Source of the DNA: a virus
Lineage: Duplodnaviria > Heunggongvirae > Uroviricota > Caudoviricetes
DNA length: 8,717 nucleotides
Direction: 5' to 3' (one strand)
Virus record (IMG/VR): IMGVR_UViG_2724679073_000005
Shown here one piece after another: positions 1-8,717 of this stretch; position 1 is the stretch's first letter; every line of letters begins with the position of its first letter. A model generated the notes under the pieces. The model saw nothing but the letters and a program-made list of their open reading frames with translations, did no database searches and had not been told where the DNA came from. The position numbers and the translations under genes were made by a program.

Positions 1-332
1 CTAACTTTGCAACAGTGCCACCGGATTTACGCGGTGAGTTTATCCGTGGTTGGGATGATGGGCGAGGTGTGGATGCGGGAAGGGTCATCTTAAGCATACA
101 GGGGTGGTTAACAGGAAGTCATTATCATAATATTCGGTCATGGGACGCGTGGGATAACACGGTATTGGTGCCAAATGACAGAGGGGGGGATAGTCTGTTG
201 TCGACAGATAACGCCGTCCGGCAAGGAGCGATTAATGGTAAATTTACCAGTCAATACAGAACGGAGTTATCTGGGGGGAATGAAACCCGCCCACGTAACA
301 TTGCCTTCAATTATATTGTGAGAGCAGCATAA
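1..332 (+). CDS. Tail fibre protein, C-terminal variable (receptor-binding) cassette in expressed orientation; 5' end truncated by window edge
   Basis: Frame open from position 3 to TAA at 330-332 (NFATVPPDLRGEFIRGWDDGRG...ETRPRNIAFNYIVRAA). No credible start or RBS inside the window; the GTG at 15 is an ORF-caller artefact. Stop overlaps the ATG of the downstream chaperone gene (TAATG). Shares the GEFIRGWDDGRG block and the C-terminal 16-aa motif with the three minus-strand cassettes. Confidence 0.8.
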   Translation, partial: NFATVPPDLRGEFIRGWDDGRGVDAGRVILSIQGWLTGSHYHNIRSWDAWDNTVLVPNDRGGDSLLSTDNAVRQGAINGKFTSQYRTELSGGNETRPRNIAFNYIVRAA

Positions 333-943
333 TGGATAATGCGATATTAAATAGCGAACTTATAGCCATACAGGCAGGAAACATTATCGTTTATAACTAT
401 GATGGTGGTAATCGGGAATATATTTCTGCATCAACTGAATATCTTGCTGTTGGCGTTGGTATTCCGGCAAATTCTTGTTTGGATGCTCCAGGCTCACATA
501 AAGCAGGTTATGCGATTCTCCGTTCAGAGGATTTAAGTTCATGGGAGTATGTGCCAGATCATCGTGGCGAAACTGTCTATAGCATTGACACTGGGAATCC
601 CGAAGAAATCACGGTGTTGGGTGACTATCCGGAAAATACAACCACTATCGCCCCGCTAACACCATACGACAAATGGGATGGAGAGAAATGGGTGGTTGAT
701 ACTGAGGCTCAACATAGTGCAGCTGTAGAGGCAGCAGAAACAAAACGTCAGTCATTGATTGATACTGCGATGGATTCCATTAGTCTGATTCAGTTGAAAT
801 TACGGGCTGGACGGAAGTTGACGCAGGCAGAAACCACGCAGCTTAACTCCGTGCTAGATTATATAGACGAGCTGAACGCGATGGATTTAACCACGGCACC
901 AGATCTCAACTGGCCTGAAAAACAACTTTCTACAGCCAGTTGA
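332..943 (+). CDS. tfa: Tail fibre assembly protein (Tfa; Mu U / P2 G / lambda Tfa-type chaperone)
   Basis: 203-aa ORF translationally coupled to the tail-fibre stop. Size and position are typical of Tfa. C-terminal region (...LTQAETTQLNSVLDYIDELNAMDLTTAPDLNWPEKQ) resembles the conserved Tfa C-terminal domain ending in a (N/E)WPE motif, as recalled from P2 G. Confidence 0.8.
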   Translation: MDNAILNSELIAIQAGNIIVYNYDGGNREYISASTEYLAVGVGIPANSCLDAPGSHKAGYAILRSEDLSSWEYVPDHRGETVYSIDTGNPEEITVLGDYPENTTTIAPLTPYDKWDGEKWVVDTEAQHSAAVEAAETKRQSLIDTAMDSISLIQLKLRAGRKLTQAETTQLNSVLDYIDELNAMDLTTAPDLNWPEKQLSTAS

Positions 944-948
944 TATAA

Positions 949-1467
949 TTAATCCGCCCTCACAATATAATTAAATGCAATATTACGAGGGCGGGTTTCT
1001 AAGCCAGCAGTACCTAAATTAGCTACGGACTGTTTATATGTTTTAAAAGTTCCATAATTAGGGGCTGGCAATCCTGCATCGCTTGTGTTCCCCCATCTGA
1101 TAACTCCCGTATTACCACTAGTAGCCCATGCCTCGTCAAAGTAGAAATTAATTGAGCGGTCAGTTGCTACGGTTGATTTTGACGGTAATCCGTGAGCATG
1201 ATCCTCCGTTGCATATCCTTGCTCGCTTAAAATAGAGCGACCAGAGTCAATCCCTCGCCCATCATCCCAGCCACGGATAAACTCACCGCGTAAATCAGGT
1301 AATTTTAACGTTGGGTAAACCTTTGCCAGATTTGGGTACTTTTCAGAAGAAAATGCTGCTCCGTTACATTTCAGCCACCCCGTTGGCGGAGTGGCTGAGG
1401 GCCACGGAACAGGTACGCCAACAGGCAATGCTGAGCCTTCCCCCAAACCAACGTTTTTATGCCGCCC
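949..1467 (-). CDS. Silent alternative tail-fibre C-terminal cassette A (promoterless 3' gene segment)
   Basis: Minus-strand frame open from 1467 down to stop at 949-951: GRHKNVGLGEGSALPVGVPVPWPSATPPTGWLKCNGAAFSSEKYPNLAKVYPTLKLPDLRGEFIRGWDDGRG...ETRPRNIAFNYIVRAD. No ATG or RBS; the TTG 'start' at 1444-1446 lies inside the crossover-site candidate. Convergent with tfa, 5 bp apart. Confidence 0.7.
   Translation of the reverse strand, partial: GRHKNVGLGEGSALPVGVPVPWPSATPPTGWLKCNGAAFSSEKYPNLAKVYPTLKLPDLRGEFIRGWDDGRGIDSGRSILSEQGYATEDHAHGLPSKSTVATDRSINFYFDEAWATSGNTGVIRWGNTSDAGLPAPNYGTFKTYKQSVANLGTAGLETRPRNIAFNYIVRAD
1256..1467 (-). repeat. ~210-bp repeat unit (copy 1 of 3) covering the site-proximal conserved part of cassette A
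   Basis: Near-identical to 1769-1981 and 2228-2441 by direct comparison. Encodes GEGSALPVGVPVPWPSATPPTGWLKCNGAAFSSEKYPNLAK(V/A)YPT(L/N)KLPDLRGEFIRGWDDGRG. Boundaries approximate. Confidence 0.8.
1438..1463. other. Candidate 26-bp serine-invertase crossover site (site A), hix/gix/cix-like
   Basis: TTCCCCCAAACC-AA-CGTTTTTATGCC. Left 12-bp half matches the invertase half-site pattern TTnTCnnAAACC in 8 of 12 positions; central AA dinucleotide; right half degenerate. Sits at the 5' edge of cassette A and overlaps the stop codon of cassette B. Confidence 0.55.
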
Positions 1468-1981
1468 TTACGATGTAATTAAATGCAACGTTGCGAGGGC
1501 GAGTTTCTGTACCTACATTTCCACTAATTTCACCATAACGTTTAACACTACGAGAGCTAATAGCTCGTAGTGAGGAAGGCACCTTATGACCGGGTTCGTC
1601 CGTTTTAACTATTCCCCCGTCACCGTATGTAGCTAGTATTCCTGGATTTACGCCTTCCCGTGCACTTCCTGCGGCGAGTCCGCCCCCTGTCCATAATTCC
1701 ATATAGTGTGCATGGTCCAAAATTGTGTGTGGCTGCCAATTAAGCAAAGCGCGGCCAGCATCCACCCCGCGCCCATCATCCCAGCCACGGATAAATTCAC
1801 CGCGTAAATCAGGTAATTTTAACGTTGGGTAAACCTTTGCCAGATTTGGGTACTTTTCAGAAGAAAATGCTGCACCATTGCATTTCAGCCACCCCGTTGG
1901 CGGTGTGGCTGAGGGCCATGGAATAGGTACACCAACGGGCAGCGCCGAGCCTTCCCCTAAACCAACGTTTTTATGCCGCCC
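1457..1981 (-). CDS. Silent alternative tail-fibre C-terminal cassette B (promoterless 3' gene segment)
   Basis: Manual translation shows the minus-strand frame open from 1981 to stop at 1457-1459 (~174 codons); the ORF track only reports 1457-1765 from an internal GTG. Begins GRHKNVGLGEGSALPVGVPIPWPSATPPTGW...PDLRGEFIRGWDDGRGVDAG and ends ETRPRNVAFNYIVRAA. Its stop codon lies inside the crossover-site candidate of cassette A. Confidence 0.7.
   Translation of the reverse strand, partial: GRHKNVGLGEGSALPVGVPIPWPSATPPTGWLKCNGAAFSSEKYPNLAKVYPTLKLPDLRGEFIRGWDDGRGVDAGRALLNWQPHTILDHAHYMELWTGGGLAAGSAREGVNPGILATYGDGGIVKTDEPGHKVPSSLRAISSRSVKRYGEISGNVGTETRPRNVAFNYIVRAA
1769..1981 (-). repeat. ~210-bp repeat unit (copy 2 of 3), cassette B
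   Basis: The cassette C-terminal-proximal ~65 bp is identical to copy 1; the site-proximal ~135 bp is about 90% identical. Boundaries approximate. Confidence 0.8.
1952..1977. other. Candidate 26-bp serine-invertase crossover site (site B)
   Basis: TTCCCCTAAACC-AA-CGTTTTTATGCC, one mismatch to site A, same orientation. At the 5' edge of cassette B, overlapping the stop codon of cassette C. Confidence 0.55.
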
Positions 1982-2441
1982 TTACGATATAATTAAAGGC
2001 AATATTACGAGGACGGTTTTCATTAGCTGTTGGCACGACACGAGAGGCGTCGAATCCAAGGTCATCGGTTTTGCCTATATCAGTTGTGTTATTCGGCATT
2101 CTCGCAGATCGTGTTCCTGCATCATAAAAAGCCCCTCTGATTGCATCAAAAGACATGCCAATCCCGCCATCTGCGAACCCCTCAATATTTCTTATTGCAT
2201 CCCCCTGTGAAGATAATAATTGTCGCCCGGCATCCACACCACGTCCGTCATCCCAGCCACGAATAAATTCACCGCGTAAATCCGGCAATTTATTAGTAGG
2301 GTAAGCCTTTGCCAGATTTGGGTACTTTTCAGAAGAAAATGCTGCTCCGTTACATTTCAGCCACCCCGTTGGCGGAGTGGCTGAGGGCCACGGAACAGGT
2401 ACGCCAACAGGCAATGCTGAGCCTTCCCCCAAACCAACGTT
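1971..2441 (-). CDS. Silent alternative tail-fibre C-terminal cassette C (promoterless 3' gene segment)
   Basis: Minus-strand frame open from 2441 to stop at 1971-1973. N-terminal 42 residues are identical to cassette A (identical DNA over ~135 bp), followed by a distinct middle and ENRPRNIAFNYIVRAA at the C-terminus. No start codon or RBS of its own. Confidence 0.7.
   Translation of the reverse strand, partial: NVGLGEGSALPVGVPVPWPSATPPTGWLKCNGAAFSSEKYPNLAKAYPTNKLPDLRGEFIRGWDDGRGVDAGRQLLSSQGDAIRNIEGFADGGIGMSFDAIRGAFYDAGTRSARMPNNTTDIGKTDDLGFDASRVVPTANENRPRNIAFNYIVRAA
2228..2441 (-). repeat. ~210-bp repeat unit (copy 3 of 3), cassette C
   Basis: The site-proximal ~135 bp (2305-2440) is identical to copy 1 (1321-1446); the distal part has diverged (KAYPTNK versus KVYPTLK). 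Boundaries approximate. Confidence 0.8.
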
Positions 2442-2449
2442 TTAGTCTT
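2424..2449. other. Candidate 26-bp serine-invertase crossover site (site C), adjacent to invertase gene
   Basis: TTCCCCCAAACC-AA-CGTTTTAGTCTT. Left half and core identical to site A, right half diverges. Lies 55 bp upstream of the invertase ATG, the usual position of the gene-proximal site in Gin/Cin/Hin systems. Confidence 0.55.
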
Positions 2450-2503
2450 AATCCCTACCTATACCAACGATGTATTTTTAACTAAACAAAGAGGTTGTTT
2501 TTC

Positions 2504-3076
2504 ATGCAAATTGGCTACATTCGTGTGTCAACAAATGACCAAAACACAGATTTACAAAGAAATGCACTGAACTGCGCAGGATGTGAACTGATTTTTGAAG
2601 ATAAAATAAGCGGAACAAAGTCAGCCAGACCAGGCTTGAAAAAGCTGCTCAGAACGTTATCAGAAGGAGATACGCTGGTTGTCTGGAAGCTGGATAGGCT
2701 TGGCAGAAGTATGAAACACCTTATCACGCTTATAGAGGAGTTGCGGGAAAAAGGTGTTAATTTCCGTAGTCTGACAGACAGTATTGACACATCAACACCC
2801 ATGGGGCGTTTCTTTTTTCATGTCATGGGTGCTTTAGCAGAAATGGAACGTGAATTAATTGTTGAGAGAACACTGGCCGGACTGGCAGCTGCACGCGAAC
2901 AGGGACGCATTGGCGGACGTCGCCCGAAGTTGACAAAAGAACAACATGAGCAAATAGCGAGGTTGATCGAAAATGGCTACAGCAGGAAACAGTTGGCAAT
3001 TATTTACGATATCGGTGTATCGACGATTTATCGTTATCATCCTGTAGAGAAGCGCCAAACTCAATCTGAGCTGTAA
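2504..3076 (+). CDS. Serine site-specific DNA invertase, Gin/Cin/Pin/Hin/Min family (resolvase-type catalytic domain plus C-terminal HTH)
   Basis: MQIGYIRVSTNDQNTDLQRNAL... carries the catalytic-serine motif (RVST), the conserved VVWKLDRLGRS and FRSLTDSIDTSTPMGRFFFHVMGALAEMERELI blocks, and the GRIGGRRPKLT hinge, followed by an HTH tail. ATG at 2504 has an AAGAGG RBS 10 nt upstream. Exact ortholog (cin, min, pin) cannot be decided by eye. Confidence 0.95.
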   Translation: MQIGYIRVSTNDQNTDLQRNALNCAGCELIFEDKISGTKSARPGLKKLLRTLSEGDTLVVWKLDRLGRSMKHLITLIEELREKGVNFRSLTDSIDTSTPMGRFFFHVMGALAEMERELIVERTLAGLAAAREQGRIGGRRPKLTKEQHEQIARLIENGYSRKQLAIIYDIGVSTIYRYHPVEKRQTQSEL

Positions 3077-3196
3077 TTCTAATGCCGCGTCGGTGTAATT
3101 TATCTTGATAGAATAGGTACATTTATCGCGCGGCACATCAATTCGATGTATCTAGCGCCTGCTGACCGCTAATGAAAACTGTTCTCGAAATGTTGT

Positions 3197-3215
3197 CCCT
3201 AGTCCGAGACTAGGG
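3197..3215. promoter_or_regulatory. Perfect 8-3-8 inverted repeat (CCCTAGTC-cga-GACTAGGG); candidate operator or late-promoter element
   Basis: 19-bp dyad in the non-coding leader between the invertase and the downstream operon. No U-run follows, so it is not an intrinsic terminator. A TANNNT hexamer (TAGGGT, 3211-3216) overlaps its right arm, positioned 3' of the dyad centre. Function unverified. Confidence 0.35.
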
Positions 3216-3511
3216 TATCACCTCTGGAAAGCATACGCAGAACCTTTTTTAACCCAGGGTGCCCAGCTTTTTTGCTGCTCGCCTTATTCGCAAAAATTAG
3301 CTCACATCCTGCGCTTTCAAGTGCTTTTCACTGCATAGCTGTGTTTTGTTCATTTGTCTATATGCGTACATAGCCTATTAGCATATTTTCTGCCCACTAT
3401 CGTTATTTATTGCAAGCTACAGGTTTTAATTAACAAAACCAGTGTGTGTGGAAATCACAAAGTGCATACCGTTCTCAAATGTTGTTCAACTTACTGTTGT
3501 ATAGGTAAAAA

Positions 3512-3775
3512 ATGACATTTTATGTACATATCGTGATGTTATCCCTTCTTGGTGGGGTGTATTCGTATTTGAGTGGGCTATGTGAAAACCGTTACGAGTC
3601 TTCATGCAAGAAATTGCTGGCCGAATGTATTTCCGCCGTACTTGCTGGCTTTATTGGCATGTATCTCGCGGAATATAAGGACATGAATGAAAGCCTTCAG
3701 AGCTGCATGGTTCTTATTTTCAGCGCCAATAGCAGGCTTATTATTGAAGGTTCCAAAAGTCGGTTGAATAGGTAA
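3512..3775 (+). CDS. Hypothetical small membrane protein (two predicted TM helices; possibly holin-like)
   Basis: 87-aa ORF with two hydrophobic stretches (VHIVMLSLLGGVYSYLSGL and LAECISAVLAGFIGMYLAEY) and a weak AGGT RBS. Co-oriented with and just upstream of the lysis/dar operon. Confidence 0.35.
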   Translation: MTFYVHIVMLSLLGGVYSYLSGLCENRYESSCKKLLAECISAVLAGFIGMYLAEYKDMNESLQSCMVLIFSANSRLIIEGSKSRLNR

Positions 3776-3820
3776 GTCTCTTATGCAACATAACCGGTTG
3801 AGAAGTTACTTTGCATACCA

Positions 3821-3846
3821 TTACCTCCTGACAACGTAGGAGGGAA
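3821..3846 (+). promoter_or_regulatory. Hairpin that sequesters the Shine-Dalgarno of the 3850 ORF
   Basis: CCTCCT (3824-3829) pairs with AGGAGG (3838-3843) across an 8-nt loop; the stem extends by two more pairs beyond one mismatch. The GGAGG RBS for the GTG start at 3850 sits inside the 3' arm. Confidence 0.35.
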
Positions 3847-3849
3847 CTT

Positions 3850-4179
3850 GTGCTTGACACACAGGAATTAGCTCCAGTTGCTATTGCGCTCCTGCTTTCA
3901 GTAATTGGTGGGATAGGCACGTTCCTGATGGATGTCCGAGACGGTCGCCAGTCTGGCAATTTGTTGGGATTGGTTACGGAGATCTTTGTTGCAGTGACAG
4001 CTGGCGCGGTGGCGTACCTATTGGGGCAACACGAGGGCTGGGAGTTATCAATTACGTACTTAATGGTAACGATAGCCAGCAATAACGGTCATGAGGTGAT
4101 TTCAGGGATGAAACGAGTGAATATCGATAGCATTCTGAATGTTCTTACAAGTTTGGTGAAAAAGGGAGGCGGGAAATGA
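3850..4179 (+). CDS. lydA: Holin-like small membrane protein (2-3 TM helices, basic C-terminus); candidate P1 LydA homolog
   Basis: 109-aa ORF with GTG start and a strong GGAGG RBS. Hydrophobic helices (LAPVAIALLLSVIGGIGTFL and LLGLVTEIFVAVTAGAVAYLLG) and a KKGGGK tail. First gene of a coupled operon leading into dar-like genes, as in the P1 lydA-lydB-dar operon. Symbol assigned by architecture, not by sequence search. Confidence 0.5.
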   Translation: MLDTQELAPVAIALLLSVIGGIGTFLMDVRDGRQSGNLLGLVTEIFVAVTAGAVAYLLGQHEGWELSITYLMVTIASNNGHEVISGMKRVNIDSILNVLTSLVKKGGGK

Positions 4180-4619
4180 TTGGCTGGGGTGTATGCGTTC
4201 TTGCGTTAGCCTTAGCCGATCGCTATTTGCTAAAACGCAAGGACATCACGCATTTAGAACTTGGTGATGTGGAAATTAAACCGGGTTTCATCCGGGTGCC
4301 GTTCAAATACCGGTCTAAATTCCCGTTTTTGCGCGGCGCAACGGTCAGATATTGGATCCGCGATGTTCAGAAGCCGACGACAGTGATTGAAGGCGAACAA
4401 CGTTGTTTGACGTCGGCTGAACAGGGCGAAAACAGTGAATGGTTGTACATACCCACTGAATATATGGGTAAAGGAGAGCGACTGTGGCATTTCAACGTCA
4501 TGGTTACGCATGGCGACTCGTTCATTAACCCGTTGTATCGGATTTTCCCTGTTACTCAGCAAATCCGCAGAAGTTACGTAATAAATCTCGCACAGGATGT
4601 GTCAGATGACGAAAAATAA
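4176..4619 (+). CDS. lydB: Membrane-anchored protein; candidate antiholin (P1 LydB-like)
   Basis: 147-aa ORF whose ATG overlaps the upstream stop (ATGA). N-terminal hydrophobic anchor (MIGWGVCVLALALA) followed by a soluble domain. Position between the holin-like gene and the hdf-like gene. Symbol assigned by synteny only. Confidence 0.45.
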   Translation: MIGWGVCVLALALADRYLLKRKDITHLELGDVEIKPGFIRVPFKYRSKFPFLRGATVRYWIRDVQKPTTVIEGEQRCLTSAEQGENSEWLYIPTEYMGKGERLWHFNVMVTHGDSFINPLYRIFPVTQQIRRSYVINLAQDVSDDEK

Positions 4620-5208
4620 GTATGCAACGGTCGATTTTGACCAGGTTAATGAAAAGGGGCTGAAATCCCTTATCGCGGCGATCAATAAAACCGGTGTTAC
4701 GGTAATTGAGGTTGACTCCAGCAACCGCGCAACAACGAAAGATGGCGTTAAAGTTAAAACCGCAAAGCTGGTTCTTAACGACGGACAAATTCTTGCCATA
4801 CAGGTAAACGATACTGGCGATATATCGTCTGTGAGGCTGAATGGAAAAGCTATTCCTAACGCTCAGTCGCCGGATATCAAGACGCTTGGTACCGTCATGG
4901 GGCAAGCGGCCCGCAAAAACTCCGCAAAATTCCAGAAATCACTGATCGCCAAAGCGAAACGTGTTGCCAATCCGGTAGACAAGAAACCGGCAGTAAAATC
5001 CAACTTTCAGCGCCTGCAAGAGGCAAAACAGCGGAATGCTCAGGTGGTTGCCGCTTATAAATCAGCGCAGAACTCGGTGTCTTTCAATCAACAGCAGATC
5101 ACTGATTTGCGGGCGAAGCTGGATAAGGAGACAGGCCGACTCAATAACGAAAAGGCCCGAAATGGCGAACTCAAACGCCGTCTTAAGCAACTGAAAGCAG
5201 GAAATTAA
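4606..5208 (+). CDS. hdf: Hdf-like protein (paralog of a DarA internal domain); putative capsid-associated antirestriction accessory protein
   Basis: ORF track start is 4597, but the ATG at 4606 has an AGGA RBS 8 nt upstream and is the likelier start. Shares a ~70-aa domain with the next protein (LNDGQILAIQV...TLGTVMGQAARKNSAKFQ versus LSDGQTISILF...TLAQVTMKLANLAEKNSAKFQ), then a basic coiled-coil tail. Size (~22 kDa) and position match P1 hdf. Confidence 0.55.
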   Translation: MTKNKYATVDFDQVNEKGLKSLIAAINKTGVTVIEVDSSNRATTKDGVKVKTAKLVLNDGQILAIQVNDTGDISSVRLNGKAIPNAQSPDIKTLGTVMGQAARKNSAKFQKSLIAKAKRVANPVDKKPAVKSNFQRLQEAKQRNAQVVAAYKSAQNSVSFNQQQITDLRAKLDKETGRLNNEKARNGELKRRLKQLKAGN

Positions 5209-5209
5209 C

Positions 5210-7129
5210 ATGGAACAGTTCAATATCAATAAAGGGGTGACGATCAAGCCTGGGCTTGACGTGCTTCCCCCGCCAGTGACTGATGATGAATATCGCGCAT
5301 TAATGGCCGGTGAGGACCGCTATCTGATGACGGAATCCAACACCCTGGAGGAAATCGAGGCTACGTTCTTCTATGACACGCCGATCCACTGGTGTGCTAC
5401 GGATTTACTGGAGGCGATTAGTTCTACTCGTTTGCAGTTACACCGGACCATGCAGGCATTTGTCCGGGCATTGAACCAGAAGCTGAATGGTACCGGAATC
5501 TCTGCGGGGAGTGATAAAACGGGGGATGTGGCCCAGAGCGGCGCGCGCGCGATCGGCGGTGCTGAAATTGGCCGGGCACGTAACGTTAACGGGCTGCCGG
5601 TCCTGCCAGCCATTATTCCGCTCAGTGATGGTCAGACTATCAGCATTCTGTTTCATAGCCCGACAGCGGAAAACCGGATCACCAATAGCGATACGCTGGT
5701 TGCTTTCCAGTTCTTACTGAATAAAAAAGACGTTACTCACACCGTTGCTCCGATGAGTGGACGTGATATGACGCTGGCGCAGGTCACCATGAAACTTGCC
5801 AACCTTGCAGAGAAAAACTCGGCAAAATTTCAGCGTGCGCAGAAGAAGAAAAAAGCCCTTGTTGATGAAATAACCCAACTACAGGCTGACAGTGACCAGA
5901 AAGAGGATGCCATGAGCGACCTCGTGGATCAGGTGGCAGCGGTAGAAGGGCAGAAGGTAGATCTGGAGCAGAAAATTAACGCTGTTGCATCGGAAGCGGA
6001 TTCTCTTTATGAAGAGAATGAGCGTTTGCAGACGGAGATTGATCAGCTCAATCGCACTGGTGGGCGCGATACCATTGCTCCTGCGGGGATGACTGGTGGA
6101 CACTCTCGCGCGATGACGGATCGCCTTGCCAGTATCAAAAATCGTATGCATATGAACGGGGAAGTGACGCTCAGTAATGGTGCATCAATGAAGCAATTCA
6201 TTGAGGACGGCGAAGGGTATATCCAGTTAACCGATTCGGATGGCAGCGTGTACATGATCAAGGCTAAATCCATACAGGGTGTGGACATGGCAGATGCGAT
6301 CGGCAAGCTGTTTAAAGCCTATAAAGCGGGTAATGTATCGGAATACCTGGTCCAACCAGAAGAACATAAACCGGAAAACGTCGAACCTGAACCAGCGGAG
6401 GATACCGGTAGCTCTTCGCCTGAACCAGAAGTCTCTGTAGGTGCATATCGATATGCCCTGCAAATGCGTCCGGCGGCCCCTGGCGCAATACCTGAAGGTA
6501 ACAAAGCAATTCTGCCGCGCCCTGATGAAGGTGACCCGTATTATGAATATGCACGCTACGGCATTGCTACTTACGATACCCCGCTTTCTGATCAGCAAAT
6601 GAGTGAGTACGACCTGAAGTTATTGCCTCGCGAGGATTCTTTCGACTTCCTGGCGAAGACACTTACTAATGGTCCGTTTGGCAAATATGCACAAAAAGCT
6701 CTGGAGCTGGCCACCAGCTCACCAGACGAGTTCCGCGTAATGCTGAAAACTCAGTTTCAAAAAACTTTCCCCAATATTGCGTTTCCGGGGGGCGCTGGCA
6801 CCGAGAAAATGGTGCAGAGCATGATCAATGCATTGCAGGCCGAAGTCGGTGAGATTACTCAGCCAGAACCTGCCCCGGCACAGCCTGATGAAACGGTTAG
6901 CGAAGCAGATGCAGAGGCTAATAAAGCCATTGAATATCTCAATAACGTGATGGATATGCAAAGCACTGACATGGCGGAGATCCGTAACGCCCGGGGCAAT
7001 GTCCGGGAAGCGATTGCAGCCCTTCAGGCTGCCGGACGTTTTGAGGAAAACGAAGAGCTGGTTAATGGCGCTGCTCGCCACCTGGCTGATCTGCTGGTAG
7101 CAATCCAGAAAGCGGGGGTAGCGGCATGA
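5210..7129 (+). CDS. darA: DarA-like protein (phage internal head / defence-against-restriction protein)
   Basis: 639-aa ORF (~70 kDa) with an AGGA RBS. Contains the hdf-like domain, a long heptad-rich coiled-coil (about residues 190-285) and Pro/Glu-rich linkers. Size, flanking hdf-like and 121-aa genes, and position downstream of the tail-fibre invertase match the P1 darA operon as recalled from the literature. Not verified by search. Confidence 0.6.
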   Translation: MEQFNINKGVTIKPGLDVLPPPVTDDEYRALMAGEDRYLMTESNTLEEIEATFFYDTPIHWCATDLLEAISSTRLQLHRTMQAFVRALNQKLNGTGISAGSDKTGDVAQSGARAIGGAEIGRARNVNGLPVLPAIIPLSDGQTISILFHSPTAENRITNSDTLVAFQFLLNKKDVTHTVAPMSGRDMTLAQVTMKLANLAEKNSAKFQRAQKKKKALVDEITQLQADSDQKEDAMSDLVDQVAAVEGQKVDLEQKINAVASEADSLYEENERLQTEIDQLNRTGGRDTIAPAGMTGGHSRAMTDRLASIKNRMHMNGEVTLSNGASMKQFIEDGEGYIQLTDSDGSVYMIKAKSIQGVDMADAIGKLFKAYKAGNVSEYLVQPEEHKPENVEPEPAEDTGSSSPEPEVSVGAYRYALQMRPAAPGAIPEGNKAILPRPDEGDPYYEYARYGIATYDTPLSDQQMSEYDLKLLPREDSFDFLAKTLTNGPFGKYAQKALELATSSPDEFRVMLKTQFQKTFPNIAFPGGAGTEKMVQSMINALQAEVGEITQPEPAPAQPDETVSEADAEANKAIEYLNNVMDMQSTDMAEIRNARGNVREAIAALQAAGRFEENEELVNGAARHLADLLVAIQKAGVAA

Positions 7130-7491
7130 CACTATCAGCTATTGAGTTAATGGATCTCAGCGATAAGTTGGATGCTCTGATGTCCAAAGCGGCTACCGCG
7201 AGTGGCATGGAGTTGCTGGATATCAGCGATGAAATTGACCAGATCATGCAACAGATGGGGTACGGCGCGTCCGGCGGCAGTAGTGGCGAGGAAAAACAAC
7301 CTTCGGTACATGATGGTGTGCCAAAACTGGTTGCTGATTTCCTGGCTGATAAATTCGTCGATCAGAGCACAGATGCATTTATCGGTACCTTGCAGGACTT
7401 GAGTCAATATGTTGGCACATACATCGACCTGGACCAGGTTAAACAGCACACGGCGGCATGGATAGCCGCCAACATTGAAGAGGCAGCATAA
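7126..7491 (+). CDS. ddrA: DdrA-like small acidic protein
   Basis: 121-aa ORF (~13 kDa) with ATGA overlap to the upstream stop. Acidic, with a Gly/Ser linker (GYGASGGSSGEE). Position immediately after the darA-like gene. Confidence 0.5.
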   Translation: MTLSAIELMDLSDKLDALMSKAATASGMELLDISDEIDQIMQQMGYGASGGSSGEEKQPSVHDGVPKLVADFLADKFVDQSTDAFIGTLQDLSQYVGTYIDLDQVKQHTAAWIAANIEEAA

Positions 7492-7503
7492 GGCGTAACA
7501 GGG

Positions 7504-8717
7504 ATGAGCTTAAGCGATCAGGTGGTAATGGCCACCAGCATAGAAACGCTGATCGAGCTGCTTAAGAACCTGCCCGATTATGGGCGGGTTTCGTATGTGG
7601 TGACAGCGAAGGGAGACGAGGTAAAAACAGCGTTTGATATCGTCGATGCCTCAGCTCTTTTGGTATCCAATACTCTGGATGGGAAAATTAATCCTGACTA
7701 TCCCCAGGAACTTCAGCCGCGCGACCGGACCCGCGCATCCAGCCTTCTTCAGGTTAACCAGATATCCAAAGATTTGCGGCCTGCTCAGCTTACTGATTCC
7801 GGTTTATCCAGCCATGGTGCGCCGATAATTGGTGAGGACAATGCCGTTGAGTCAGGTAATGGACGGACCATGGGGATCATCAAAGCCTATCAGGACGGCA
7901 ATGCGGATCGGTATCGTGAGTACCTGATTGATCATGCGACCGAATTCGGCATACGACCTGAAAAGGTTGAATCAATGACGGCTCCGGTACTGGTGCGCCG
8001 CCGGTTAACTAAGGTTGACCGCGTTCAGTTTGCCAAGGACTCAAATATTTCTGATCTTCAGGAAATGGCAGCCAGTGAAAAGGCTTTTGTTGATGCCGAC
8101 AGCATAACACCGGCGATGATGGCGCTTTTTAACCCGTCAGAAAGCGGAGATCTGCTTAGCCGCAGTAATGACGCGTTTATTCGCGGATTTATGACGCAAG
8201 TTGGTGCCACACAGGCGGCTGGCCTTGTAACTGAAGATGGGCGACCAACACGGCAACTTGTAGACCGTATACAAAACGCGATCTTTGCCAAGGCATATAA
8301 GGATGCGCGCCTGGTAAGGATGGTTGCAGAAGAACCTGATCCGGATATGCGTAATGTTCTGACGGCGCTTAATGCGGCAGCCAATGATTTTGTCCAGATG
8401 CAGGCTTTATCAGGAGAAGCGCACAAGCAGGCTGTGACAACTATTGTTGATGGCATTGAGACAGCGGATAGCCTCGATAAAAAGGCGCTGGCGGCATTGA
8501 AAGATGCGGTAGACCTGGTAAGGCAATCGAAGGAGTCAGGCCAGCATATTACCGATGTTATTGCTCAGGGGGATATGTTCAGCGAAACGGCCCCGGAAGT
8601 GAAAGCACTCGCGTTGTTCATCGTCGCGAATAACCGTAGCGCGAAGCGTATGGCCACCGCCTTTAAGTTGATGGCTCAACGTATCAATGATGAGTTACAG
8701 GGCACTGTTGCAAAGTT
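7504..8717 (+). CDS. ddrB: DdrB-like large protein, N-terminal ~404 codons (3' end beyond window)
   Basis: Checked codon by codon: frame open from ATG at 7504 to the window end with no stop. The ORF track misses it because no stop is reached. Follows the ddrA-like gene as in the P1 darA operon. Confidence 0.5.
   Translation, partial: MSLSDQVVMATSIETLIELLKNLPDYGRVSYVVTAKGDEVKTAFDIVDASALLVSNTLDGKINPDYPQELQPRDRTRASSLLQVNQISKDLRPAQLTDSGLSSHGAPIIGEDNAVESGNGRTMGIIKAYQDGNADRYREYLIDHATEFGIRPEKVESMTAPVLVRRRLTKVDRVQFAKDSNISDLQEMAASEKAFVDADSITPAMMALFNPSESGDLLSRSNDAFIRGFMTQVGATQAAGLVTEDGRPTRQLVDRIQNAIFAKAYKDARLVRMVAEEPDPDMRNVLTALNAAANDFVQMQALSGEAHKQAVTTIVDGIETADSLDKKALAALKDAVDLVRQSKESGQHITDVIAQGDMFSETAPEVKALALFIVANNRSAKRMATAFKLMAQRINDELQGTVAK

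Follow-up and report, generated by a model that had tools for sequence, protein, structure and literature searches.

The window analysed here is a stretch of 8,717 nucleotides that makes up one complete contig, LOJL01000032.1, of assembly GCA_001601655.1, a 16x short-read draft in 101 contigs of the clinical ESBL E. coli strain 105454. Its right-hand part holds six genes on the + strand with overlapping or closely coupled junctions, in the layout of the annotated P1 record NC_005856. Tail-fibre cassettes, a tail-fibre assembly gene, a Cin-family invertase and lydC, all of P1 type, are found on the same contig. An element without other P1-like genes would have spoken against the initial annotation, and these genes answer this for the span of the single 8.7-kb contig. 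The features are as follows, with the genes, their order, their translational coupling and the promoter as read from the sequence.

1-19, - strand: terminal 19 bases of IS26, tnp-3' (IRR) side, of a copy extending leftward; 14-bp terminal inverted repeat (TIR) at 6-19
3208-3384, - strand: P1-type cin pseudogene remnant, between the invertase and lydA
3512-3775, + strand: lydC variant, 87 aa, 9.7 kDa, holin paralogue of the LydA family, ahead of the late promoter
3803-3821, + strand: candidate late promoter LPdar; -22 box AAGTTACTT at 3803-3811, N4, -10 box TACCAT at 3816-3821
3838-3843, + strand: Shine-Dalgarno sequence AGGAGG, 6 nt ahead of the lydA GTG, same in P1
3850-4179, + strand: lydA, holin by P1 annotation, 109 aa, 11.5 kDa, GTG start, 100% identity to P1 LydA
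4176-4619, + strand: lydB, LydA antagonist by P1 annotation, 147 aa, 17.2 kDa, 98.6% identity to P1 LydB
4597-5208, + strand: hdf, capsid-internal DarA partner, 203 aa, 22.2 kDa, 98.5% identity to P1 Hdf
5210-7129, + strand: darA, defence against restriction protein A, 639 aa, 69.6 kDa, 98.0% identity to P1 DarA without gaps
7126-7491, + strand: ddrA, Dar-system virion protein, 121 aa, 12.9 kDa, 95.9% identity to P1 DdrA
7504-8700, + strand: 5' part of ddrB, codons 1-399 of 995, followed by IS26
8058-8456, - strand: iddB-type ORF, 132 aa, antisense within ddrB; P1 has a 399-nt iddB at the corresponding position
8701-8717, + strand: 17 end bases of another IS26 copy, which extends rightward, same IRR end; TIR at 8701-8714

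The six genes, including an open last frame, lie where the initial annotation had placed them, and the junctions it described can be read directly. Stop and start codons overlap as ATGA at 4176-4179 (lydA/lydB) and 7126-7129 (darA/ddrA), and hdf is joined to darA by TAA-C-ATG at 5206-5212; the overlap of lydB with hdf is 23 nt long, and there are 12 nt between ddrA and ddrB. The proposed masses of 22, 70 and 13 kDa for the middle three products agree with the computed values for Hdf, DarA and DdrA. LydA, LydB, Hdf, DarA and DdrA are each equal in length to their P1 counterparts, at 95.9-100% identity. On the DNA level, over 5.4 kb, P1 is 96.6% identical and 18 other P1-type phages are 97-99.7% identical, and a six-gene array of this kind is therefore far beyond chance. 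The gene order lydA-lydB-hdf-darA-ddrA-ddrB, which had been proposed by comparison with P1, is likewise borne out, with the same overlaps and late promoter in the annotated P1 record. "Dar-like", as the operon had been called, is right as to the genes but too weak as wording, since this is the P1 dar operon itself. That 3850-8700 is the LPdar late operon of P1, with lydC ahead of it, in a P1-type (Punavirus) phage-plasmid whose ddrB has been cut by IS26, is the main reading, and it can be given a probability of roughly 93%.

The Pfam assignments run along the operon in the order holin, LydB, DarA_N, DarA_N with DarA_C, and ddrB-ParB. LydA matches PF16083 with 30.1 bits against a cutoff of 28.4, and LydB matches PF16084 (LydB) along its full length with 344 bits; in the P1 holin-antiholin pair, too, a holin of the LydA family precedes LydB and the two overlap at a stop and start. 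The role of LydB has been entered as "prevents premature lysis" (PMC10695390). Hdf contains DarA_N alone (PF18788, E=1.5e-21), whereas DarA contains both DarA_N (PF18788, E=4e-42) and DarA_C (PF18789, E=6e-17). A comparison of the 639-aa and 203-aa proteins with P1 DarA and Hdf had been suggested as a check, and besides the high identity at equal length and the Pfam matches, both proteins match P1 structures along their full length, Hdf as PDB 9ukm chain H ("Hdf") and DarA as 9ukm chain I (1377 bits), in each case also with 9vz0. The exact DarA protein sequence is found in 3651 blocks of a public assembly collection. DdrA matched no Pfam family and is assigned by its identity to P1 alone; it has been described as a head protein and "antagonist of EcoA endonuclease" (PMC9024508).

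The operon had been placed immediately downstream of the invertase, which does not hold. The invertase stop is at 3076, and a 773-bp interval with the cin remnant, lydC and LPdar follows before lydA. The lydC gene, which was missing from the earlier gene list, lies at the place of the annotated lydC in P1, and its product matches PF16083 (Phage_holin_3_3, E=1.2e-9). It is 57% identical to P1 LydC (87 versus 93 aa) and belongs to the same 87-aa type as that of phage vB_EcoM-673R5, with nearly identical DNA. The candidate copy of LPdar has the same sequence and spacing as the annotated LPdar of P1 NC_005856, and the block 3790-3860 is invariant across this contig, P1 and 673R5. When the operon was scanned for consensus promoters and terminators, sigma-70-like sites were fewer than in shuffles and terminator-like matches were at chance level. 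Such a result would fit a single late transcription unit but does not count as evidence for one.

The last gene had been described as longer than 404 aa. The frame from the ATG at 7504 is indeed open for 404 codons to the contig end, without a stop, but only 399 of these codons are DdrB, because the last 17 bases of the contig (8701-8717) are the end of an IS26. In agreement with this, 397 of the 404 aligned positions are identical to the N-terminus of P1 DdrB, and five of the seven differences are the last five, IS26-derived codons; residues 1-399 show about 98% identity to P1. The truncated DdrB keeps the ParB-like domain (aa 36-167; PF18763 ddrB-ParB, E=5e-40). The full-length protein, which has 995 aa in P1, is not encoded on this contig, and the region with the predicted C-terminal metallopeptidase, described as the C-terminal MPTase domain of DdrB in PMC5512222, is absent from it. 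If the IS26 is complete, translation of the cut gene is predicted to give a 452-aa fusion. The iddB-type ORF within ddrB has no Pfam match and is possibly no real gene; iddB is non-essential in P1 (PMC10695390).

The 14-bp TIR GGCACTGTTGCAAA is present exactly at 6-19 (- strand) and 8701-8714 (+ strand), where 0.01 occurrences would be expected by chance, and the IS26 TIR sequence has been published (PMC8477213). Bases 1-19, as reverse complement, are identical to the first 19 of the IS26 annotated in phage RCS47, and bases 8701-8717 are the first 17 bases of the same element, adjoining the 3' end of tnp26. Both contig ends are thus the same IS26 terminus, and the two copies are therefore inverted relative to each other; that each is a complete IS26 in this orientation is what the 17-19 visible terminal bases suggest. 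On the left, IS26 breaks a tail-fibre C-terminal cassette at base 20, and on the right it interrupts ddrB after codon 399, so that an 8.68-kb P1 block is bracketed by IS26. IS26 makes target-site duplications of 8 bp; the 8-bp sequences adjoining the IS26 ends on the inner side are ACCGGATT and AGTTACAG, and by themselves these inner flanks fit an inversion as well as two independent insertions. Database alignments to phage, plasmid and E. coli genomes start exactly at base 20 and all stop exactly at 8700. An exact-pattern scan of viral contigs and genome contigs for the 33-mer across the ddrB::IS26 junction gave no match, and short queries from the contig end matched plasmids and complete E. 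coli genomes hundreds of times at 100%, in every case no further than 8700, so that among the collections searched the junction is private to this assembly. A 16x short-read draft would be expected to break at a repeated insertion sequence, as the contig does at both ends. That the block is a translocatable unit or a pseudo-compound transposon of IS26 is unlikely, since translocatable units form from IS26 copies in direct repeat and the two copies here are inverted, with the same end facing inwards.

The dar operon is among the best-characterised counter-defence operons of phages, with genetics since 1987, a virion proteome and cryo-EM structures from 2026. Expression, packaging and protection from restriction by the present copy would follow from its near-identity to P1. 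In P1, it is established that the Lpa-dependent promoter LPdar transcribes the block late in the lytic cycle, and the same would be expected here. LydA would then open a membrane hole through which the endolysin, encoded elsewhere, can exit, and LydB would delay LydA. Pairs of Hdf and DarA would bind the inner capsid surface at the penton-hexon junctions, set head size and recruit DdrA, DdrB, DarB and Ulx; the Dar proteins would leave the head together with the DNA and shield it in cis from type I restriction. The capsid-packaged, anti-restriction role that the initial annotation had given for the DarA family fits the published roles in P1, whose Dar proteins lie inside the capsid and guard the entering DNA against type I restriction (PMC12810830; PMC12707154), with head packaging and protection in cis also described in PMC9024508. 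According to these sources, DarA and DdrA would counter enzymes of the EcoA/StySA type, and DarB, Ulx and DdrB those of the EcoB/EcoK type. The restriction phenotypes of single genes are taken second-hand from PMC12810830, PMC9024508 and PMC12707154, in which the EcoB/EcoK part consists of one-line summaries of Piya et al. 2017. By analogy with P1, the functions of holin and antiholin, Hdf, DarA and DdrA should be intact in this copy, while DdrB appears to be reduced to its ParB-like N-terminal part. Since DdrB is cut and, as far as these summaries go, assists the DarB-dependent arm, that arm of protection is probably weakened. The prophage as a whole would then be rearranged and possibly defective.

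How much of the phage is left around the block is a separate matter, and several explanations can be compared. Somewhat better than even is the case for a complete, inducible P1-type phage-plasmid, in which the IS26 pair comes from an IS26-mediated inversion or from two simple insertions, and the dar system, with darB and ulx on other contigs, is largely functional since ddrB is dispensable. In complete E. coli genomes, P1-type ddrB is present in 459 of 5426, almost always on plasmids of roughly 90-100 kb, and in the closest complete relatives a whole phage surrounds the block. P1-type phages bearing IS26 are known, RCS47 being one, and ddrB, darA, hdf and ddrA are all non-essential for plaque formation (PMC10695390). 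Intramolecular replicative transposition would leave two IS26 copies in inverse orientation with their like ends inward, as seen here. Against a fully functional phage, a tail-fibre C-terminal cassette is broken by IS26 on the left, and on the right 60% of DdrB is lost to it. This explanation overlaps the main reading of a P1-type phage-plasmid with an interrupted ddrB, and the two differ only in the amount of function kept. A dead remnant of 8.68 kb that has ceased to belong to any phage, captured or stranded between copies of IS26 either in a resistance plasmid or in the chromosome, and with dar and lysis genes that no longer have a role, is a good deal more doubtful. Both contig ends are IS26, the host is a clinical ESBL strain in which IS26-rich resistance regions are usual, and of the 461 ddrB matches in complete E. 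coli genomes 11 lie in the chromosome, all of which would suit a remnant. However, seven genes are complete without a frameshift or stop, at 96-100% identity to P1 apart from the LydC variant at 57%, which speaks for a recent event or for selection that is still acting, and most P1-type sequence in E. coli sits in whole phage-plasmids.

Low coverage also raises the question of whether the IS26 ends are assembly artefacts, that is, repeat-induced mis-joins in a 16x short-read draft, with ddrB and the tail-fibre cassette intact in reality; that the junction is seen in no other public record among the collections searched would fit this as well. It is nevertheless very improbable. The P1-type homology stops exactly at the outermost TIR base at both ends, which is the signature of true insertion junctions and not of random chimeras, and an intact ddrB would have allowed the assembler to read through. 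If the junctions are taken as real, one can speculate further, although this is an unlikely reading: in a multidrug-resistant clinical E. coli, IS26 would have come to flank 8.7 kb of a P1-type phage-plasmid with its host-range, lysis and anti-restriction genes, may have inverted or excised this block, and would have cut DdrB to its ParB-like domain, either as part of a phage-plasmid becoming a non-phage resistance plasmid or as a natural ddrB allele that shifts which type I systems are evaded.

The preferred reading, the P1 dar operon in a P1-type phage-plasmid with an IS26-cut ddrB, carries little discovery value. The operon is well studied and ordinary except for the interrupted ddrB at the contig end, and the case is useful mainly as a positive control, in which the letters alone were enough for the P1 operon to be recognised. 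Only the cutting of ddrB together with the bracketing of the block goes beyond routine, and here IS26 gives a modest illustration of the way in which phage-plasmids of resistant clinical strains are eroded or rearranged by insertion sequences.

Compared with P1 NC_005856.1 (24542-31230, lydA to ddrB), the present copy has the same order, lengths, overlaps, start codons, late promoter and Shine-Dalgarno sequence, but in P1 the 995-aa DdrB is intact, whereas here it is cut after codon 399 by IS26. The invertase also differs, as it lies on the operon's strand, is 74% identical to Cin, and is separated from the operon by a P1-type cin remnant. Several phages are closer than P1 over lydA-ddrB, with identities of 99.7% for vB_EcoM-Ro157c2YLVW, 99.2% for RCS47, 99.1% for vB_EcoM-673R5, 98.5% for P7 and 97.0% for SJ46, and the E. 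coli plasmid pZ0117EC0062-2 is 98.7% identical over 20-8700. Both 673R5 and this plasmid share the lydC variant, the co-directional invertase and the multi-cassette tail-fibre region with this contig. In close relatives, a 2255-aa DarB-type gene lies about 9.5 kb downstream. In the listed punaviruses and phage-plasmids, DdrB has its full 995 aa, or else IS200/IS605 insertions of their own lie at other places in the operon region, and none of them has an IS26 junction at the site of ddrB codon 399. Finally, RCS47, a carrier of blaSHV-2, combines a P1-type backbone with an IS26 that is identical over the visible IS26 bases; the copy examined there (15947-16766) adjoins non-phage ygbL and a ygbM fragment and not the dar operon, whereas in strain 105454 it is ddrB and a tail-fibre cassette that are cut.

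The six plus-strand genes from position 3850 onwards had been described as a dar-like module in the order lydA-lydB-hdf-darA-ddrA-ddrB, and the ORFs, sizes and junctions given for them are all correct by the ORF list. Stop and start codons overlap as ATGA at 4176-4179 and 7126-7129, the hdf/darA junction is TAA-C-ATG (5206-5212), lydB and hdf overlap by 23 nt, and ddrA is separated from ddrB by 12 nt. The last gene, put at more than 404 aa, is indeed an open frame of 404 codons, but its DdrB part ends after codon 399. The operon does not lie immediately downstream of the invertase as claimed; the invertase stop is at 3076, with a cin remnant and lydC in between.

Features of the window (protein identities of the operon come from aligning each protein globally with the one from P1)
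20-332, plus: tail-fibre C-terminal cassette, cut by IS26
332-943: tail-fibre assembly gene
949-1446, 1457-1765/1942 and 1971-2432, minus: three tail-fibre cassettes
2504-3076, plus: intact invertase, 190 aa, only 74% identical to Cin
3208-3384, minus: cin remnant (P1-type pseudogene), 83% identical to Cin residues 1-59, two in-frame stops
3512-3775, plus: divergent lydC, 87 aa, 57% identical to P1 LydC (93 aa)
3803-3811, plus: -22 box AAGTTACTT of the late promoter LPdar, identical to P1
3816-3821, plus: LPdar -10 TACCAT, identical to P1
3838-3843, plus: Shine-Dalgarno AGGAGG, identical to P1, as is the lydA GTG start
3850-4179, plus: lydA, 109 aa, GTG start, 100%
4176-4619, plus: lydB, 147 aa, 98.6%
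4597-5208, plus: hdf, 203 aa, 98.5%
5210-7129, plus: darA, 639 aa, 98.0%
7126-7491, plus: ddrA, 121 aa, 95.9%
7504 (ATG) to window end, plus: ddrB open frame, 404 codons without stop, N-terminal part about 98%
8058-8456, minus: 132-aa ORF antisense within ddrB, where P1 annotates iddB

Because of these identities to P1 and its abundance in E. coli, the module is the P1 dar operon proper, from a common E. coli phage-plasmid lineage, and not merely dar-like. In the annotated P1 record the arrangement (lydC, LPdar, lydA, lydB, hdf, darA, ddrA, ddrB) is exactly that of the window, which bears out the proposed gene order, and the operon proteins have the same lengths and start codons with 0 gaps. 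With 3300-8717 as the megablast query, phage records yielded 19 P1-type phages with at least 91% query coverage and 96.6-99.7% identity, including P1 (NC_005856, 96.6%), P7 (98.5%), RCS47 (99.2%), vB_EcoM-673R5 (99.1%) and vB_EcoM-Ro157c2YLVW (99.7%). The 639-aa and 203-aa proteins, earlier likened to DarA and Hdf, also match at full length the "Defense against restriction protein A" and "Hdf" chains of PDB 9ukm/9vz0. Computed masses of Hdf, DarA and DdrA (22.2, 69.6 and 12.9 kDa) agree with those published for P1 (22.1, 69.4 and 13 kDa; PMC9024508). Pfam assigns Phage_holin_3_3 to LydC and LydA, the LydB family to LydB (full length, 344 bits), DarA_N to Hdf, DarA_N and DarA_C to DarA, and ddrB-ParB to DdrB residues 36-167; DdrA had no family match in this search. 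An identical DarA sequence is recorded in 3651 blocks of a public assembly collection. Of 5426 complete E. coli genomes, 459 contain P1-type ddrB DNA, almost without exception on a plasmid. Complete relatives such as plasmid pZ0117EC0062-2 (98.7% over 20-8700) have the whole phage around the block and a full 995-aa DdrB, and in a relative (locus L013) a 2255-aa DarB-type gene lies about 9.5 kb downstream.

Two starts are candidates for hdf: ATG 4597 (203 aa), found in the P1 annotation as well as in the PDB chain, versus ATG 4606 (200 aa), chosen by the gene caller behind the public assembly collection. The P1 record places iddB within ddrB on the opposite strand; the matching ORF here has no Pfam family and shows no sign of being a real gene, and iddB is non-essential in P1 (PMC10695390).

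The mechanism has been established for P1 and is transferred to the window by near-identity. The LPdar/Shine-Dalgarno block is invariant among three phages, and lydA-ddrB would form a late transcription unit from LPdar, as annotated in P1. LydA would be a holin and LydB its antagonist, preventing premature lysis (P1 annotation, Pfam, PMC10695390); the endolysin gene of relatives lies about 3.4 kb past the ddrB end. Cryo-EM of P1 found 55 pairs of DarA and Hdf on the inside of the capsid, where pentons and hexons meet; these pairs touch DNA and are missing from emptied heads (PMC12810830). Hdf and DarA enter the capsid first and are required for packaging DdrA, DdrB and DarB as well as Ulx, and their loss also upsets head-size determination (PMC12810830). 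The same paper has DarA needed against the type I systems EcoA and StySA, and links DarB, Ulx and DdrB to EcoB and EcoK. The P1 virion proteome has DdrB listed as helping to add DarB to the capsid, and DdrA as an EcoA antagonist (PMC9024508). A CRISPRi screen found hdf, darA, ddrA and ddrB dispensable for plaques on a host not restricting P1 (PMC10695390).

Every alignment in three collections ends at base 8700, and whole-window alignments begin at base 20. Beyond 8700 the right end reads GGCACTGTTGCAAAGTT, and the left end has the reverse complement of this sequence with two further bases. IS26 has a published 14-bp terminal inverted repeat, GGCACTGTTGCAAA (PMC8477213), which occurs exactly twice in the window, at 6-19 (minus) and 8701-8714 (plus), with 0.01 expected; an ORF at 15-332 begins inside the left repeat. 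What is visible of IS26, 17 bases on the right and 19 on the left, is identical to the end adjoining the tnp26 3' end in the annotated RCS47 IS26 (820 bp, locus L016, 901-1720), and differs from its other end, GGCACTGTTGCAAATAG. Since both copies face the P1 block with the same end, they are predicted to be mutually inverted. The pair may have arisen by two insertions or by an inversion that IS26 mediated, or may mark a remnant that sits in a resistance plasmid. By exact protein match of the 15-332 ORF, the window is the entire contig LOJL01000032.1 of GCA_001601655.1, a draft assembly (MiSeq, 16x, 101 contigs) of E. coli strain 105454, an ESBL producer from Walter Reed (PMC4982294), and the contig break is at a repeated IS, as is usual in short-read assemblies. 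Searches of phage, plasmid and complete E. coli records, of viral contigs and of species-representative genomes did not find the ddrB::IS26 junction.

With IS26 beginning at 8701 and the contig ending at the IS, the last ORF is a DdrB that stops short after 399 of its 995 codons. If IS26 is complete, the frame would continue for 53 IS-derived codons, giving a computed 452-aa product predicted to retain the ParB-like domain and lose everything past residue 399. It is in this lost part that Iyer et al. located a C-terminal metallopeptidase, thought to process DdrB to a roughly 76-kDa packaged form (PMC5512222). We infer that DarA, Hdf and DdrA would function normally, while DdrB function, and hence efficient DarB incorporation, is probably impaired.

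The cin remnant sits just downstream of the intact invertase in opposite orientation. With that invertase matching Cin at no more than 74%, the arrangement suggests that another member of the Cin/Min/Pin family, lying in the other orientation, took the place of the ancestral cin. The lydC region (3480-3790) is a divergence hotspot with DNA more than 95% identical on either side; phage 673R5 has the same lydC type. Since P7, RCS47 and Ro157c2YLVW lack near-identical DNA upstream of about base 3781-3789, a recombination boundary is placed, from these alignments, just upstream of LPdar.

Downstream of ddrB and hxr, relatives carry alternative cargo at the position of P1's IS1, either a Tad2-like (PF11195) gene with a 260-aa ORF or an HD-domain dGTPase-like gene (L004-L010 and L013, about 17100-17800, L013 13661-14311; L008/L012, 16362-17717; L002, 12268-13257). 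It looks like a variable counter-defence/defence slot beside the dar operon. In L012 (GCA_052151935.1, contig ACAIFN010000034.1, 1-7271), genes of P2 type for lysis, baseplate and tail fibre (GpR, tail S, V, W, J, I), not P1 tail genes, precede the invertase and lydA-ddrB; the contig is either a P2/P1 recombinant, joined via the tail-fibre/invertase region that the two share, or misassembled.

The P1 C segment has two cassettes, whereas region 20-2500 of the window is a richer, multi-cassette one. Its three minus-strand cassettes have 281-nt and 51-nt repeat families in common, and inverted repeats of 59-76 nt connect them with the plus-strand cassette. Presumably this region resembles the p15B Min system. 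The initial annotation is confirmed in its observation and supported in its interpretation. All details of the dar operon itself were known before; what is added to the known picture is only the previously missed lydC, the cin remnant, the IS26 cut of ddrB and the IS26 bracketing of an 8.68-kb P1 block.
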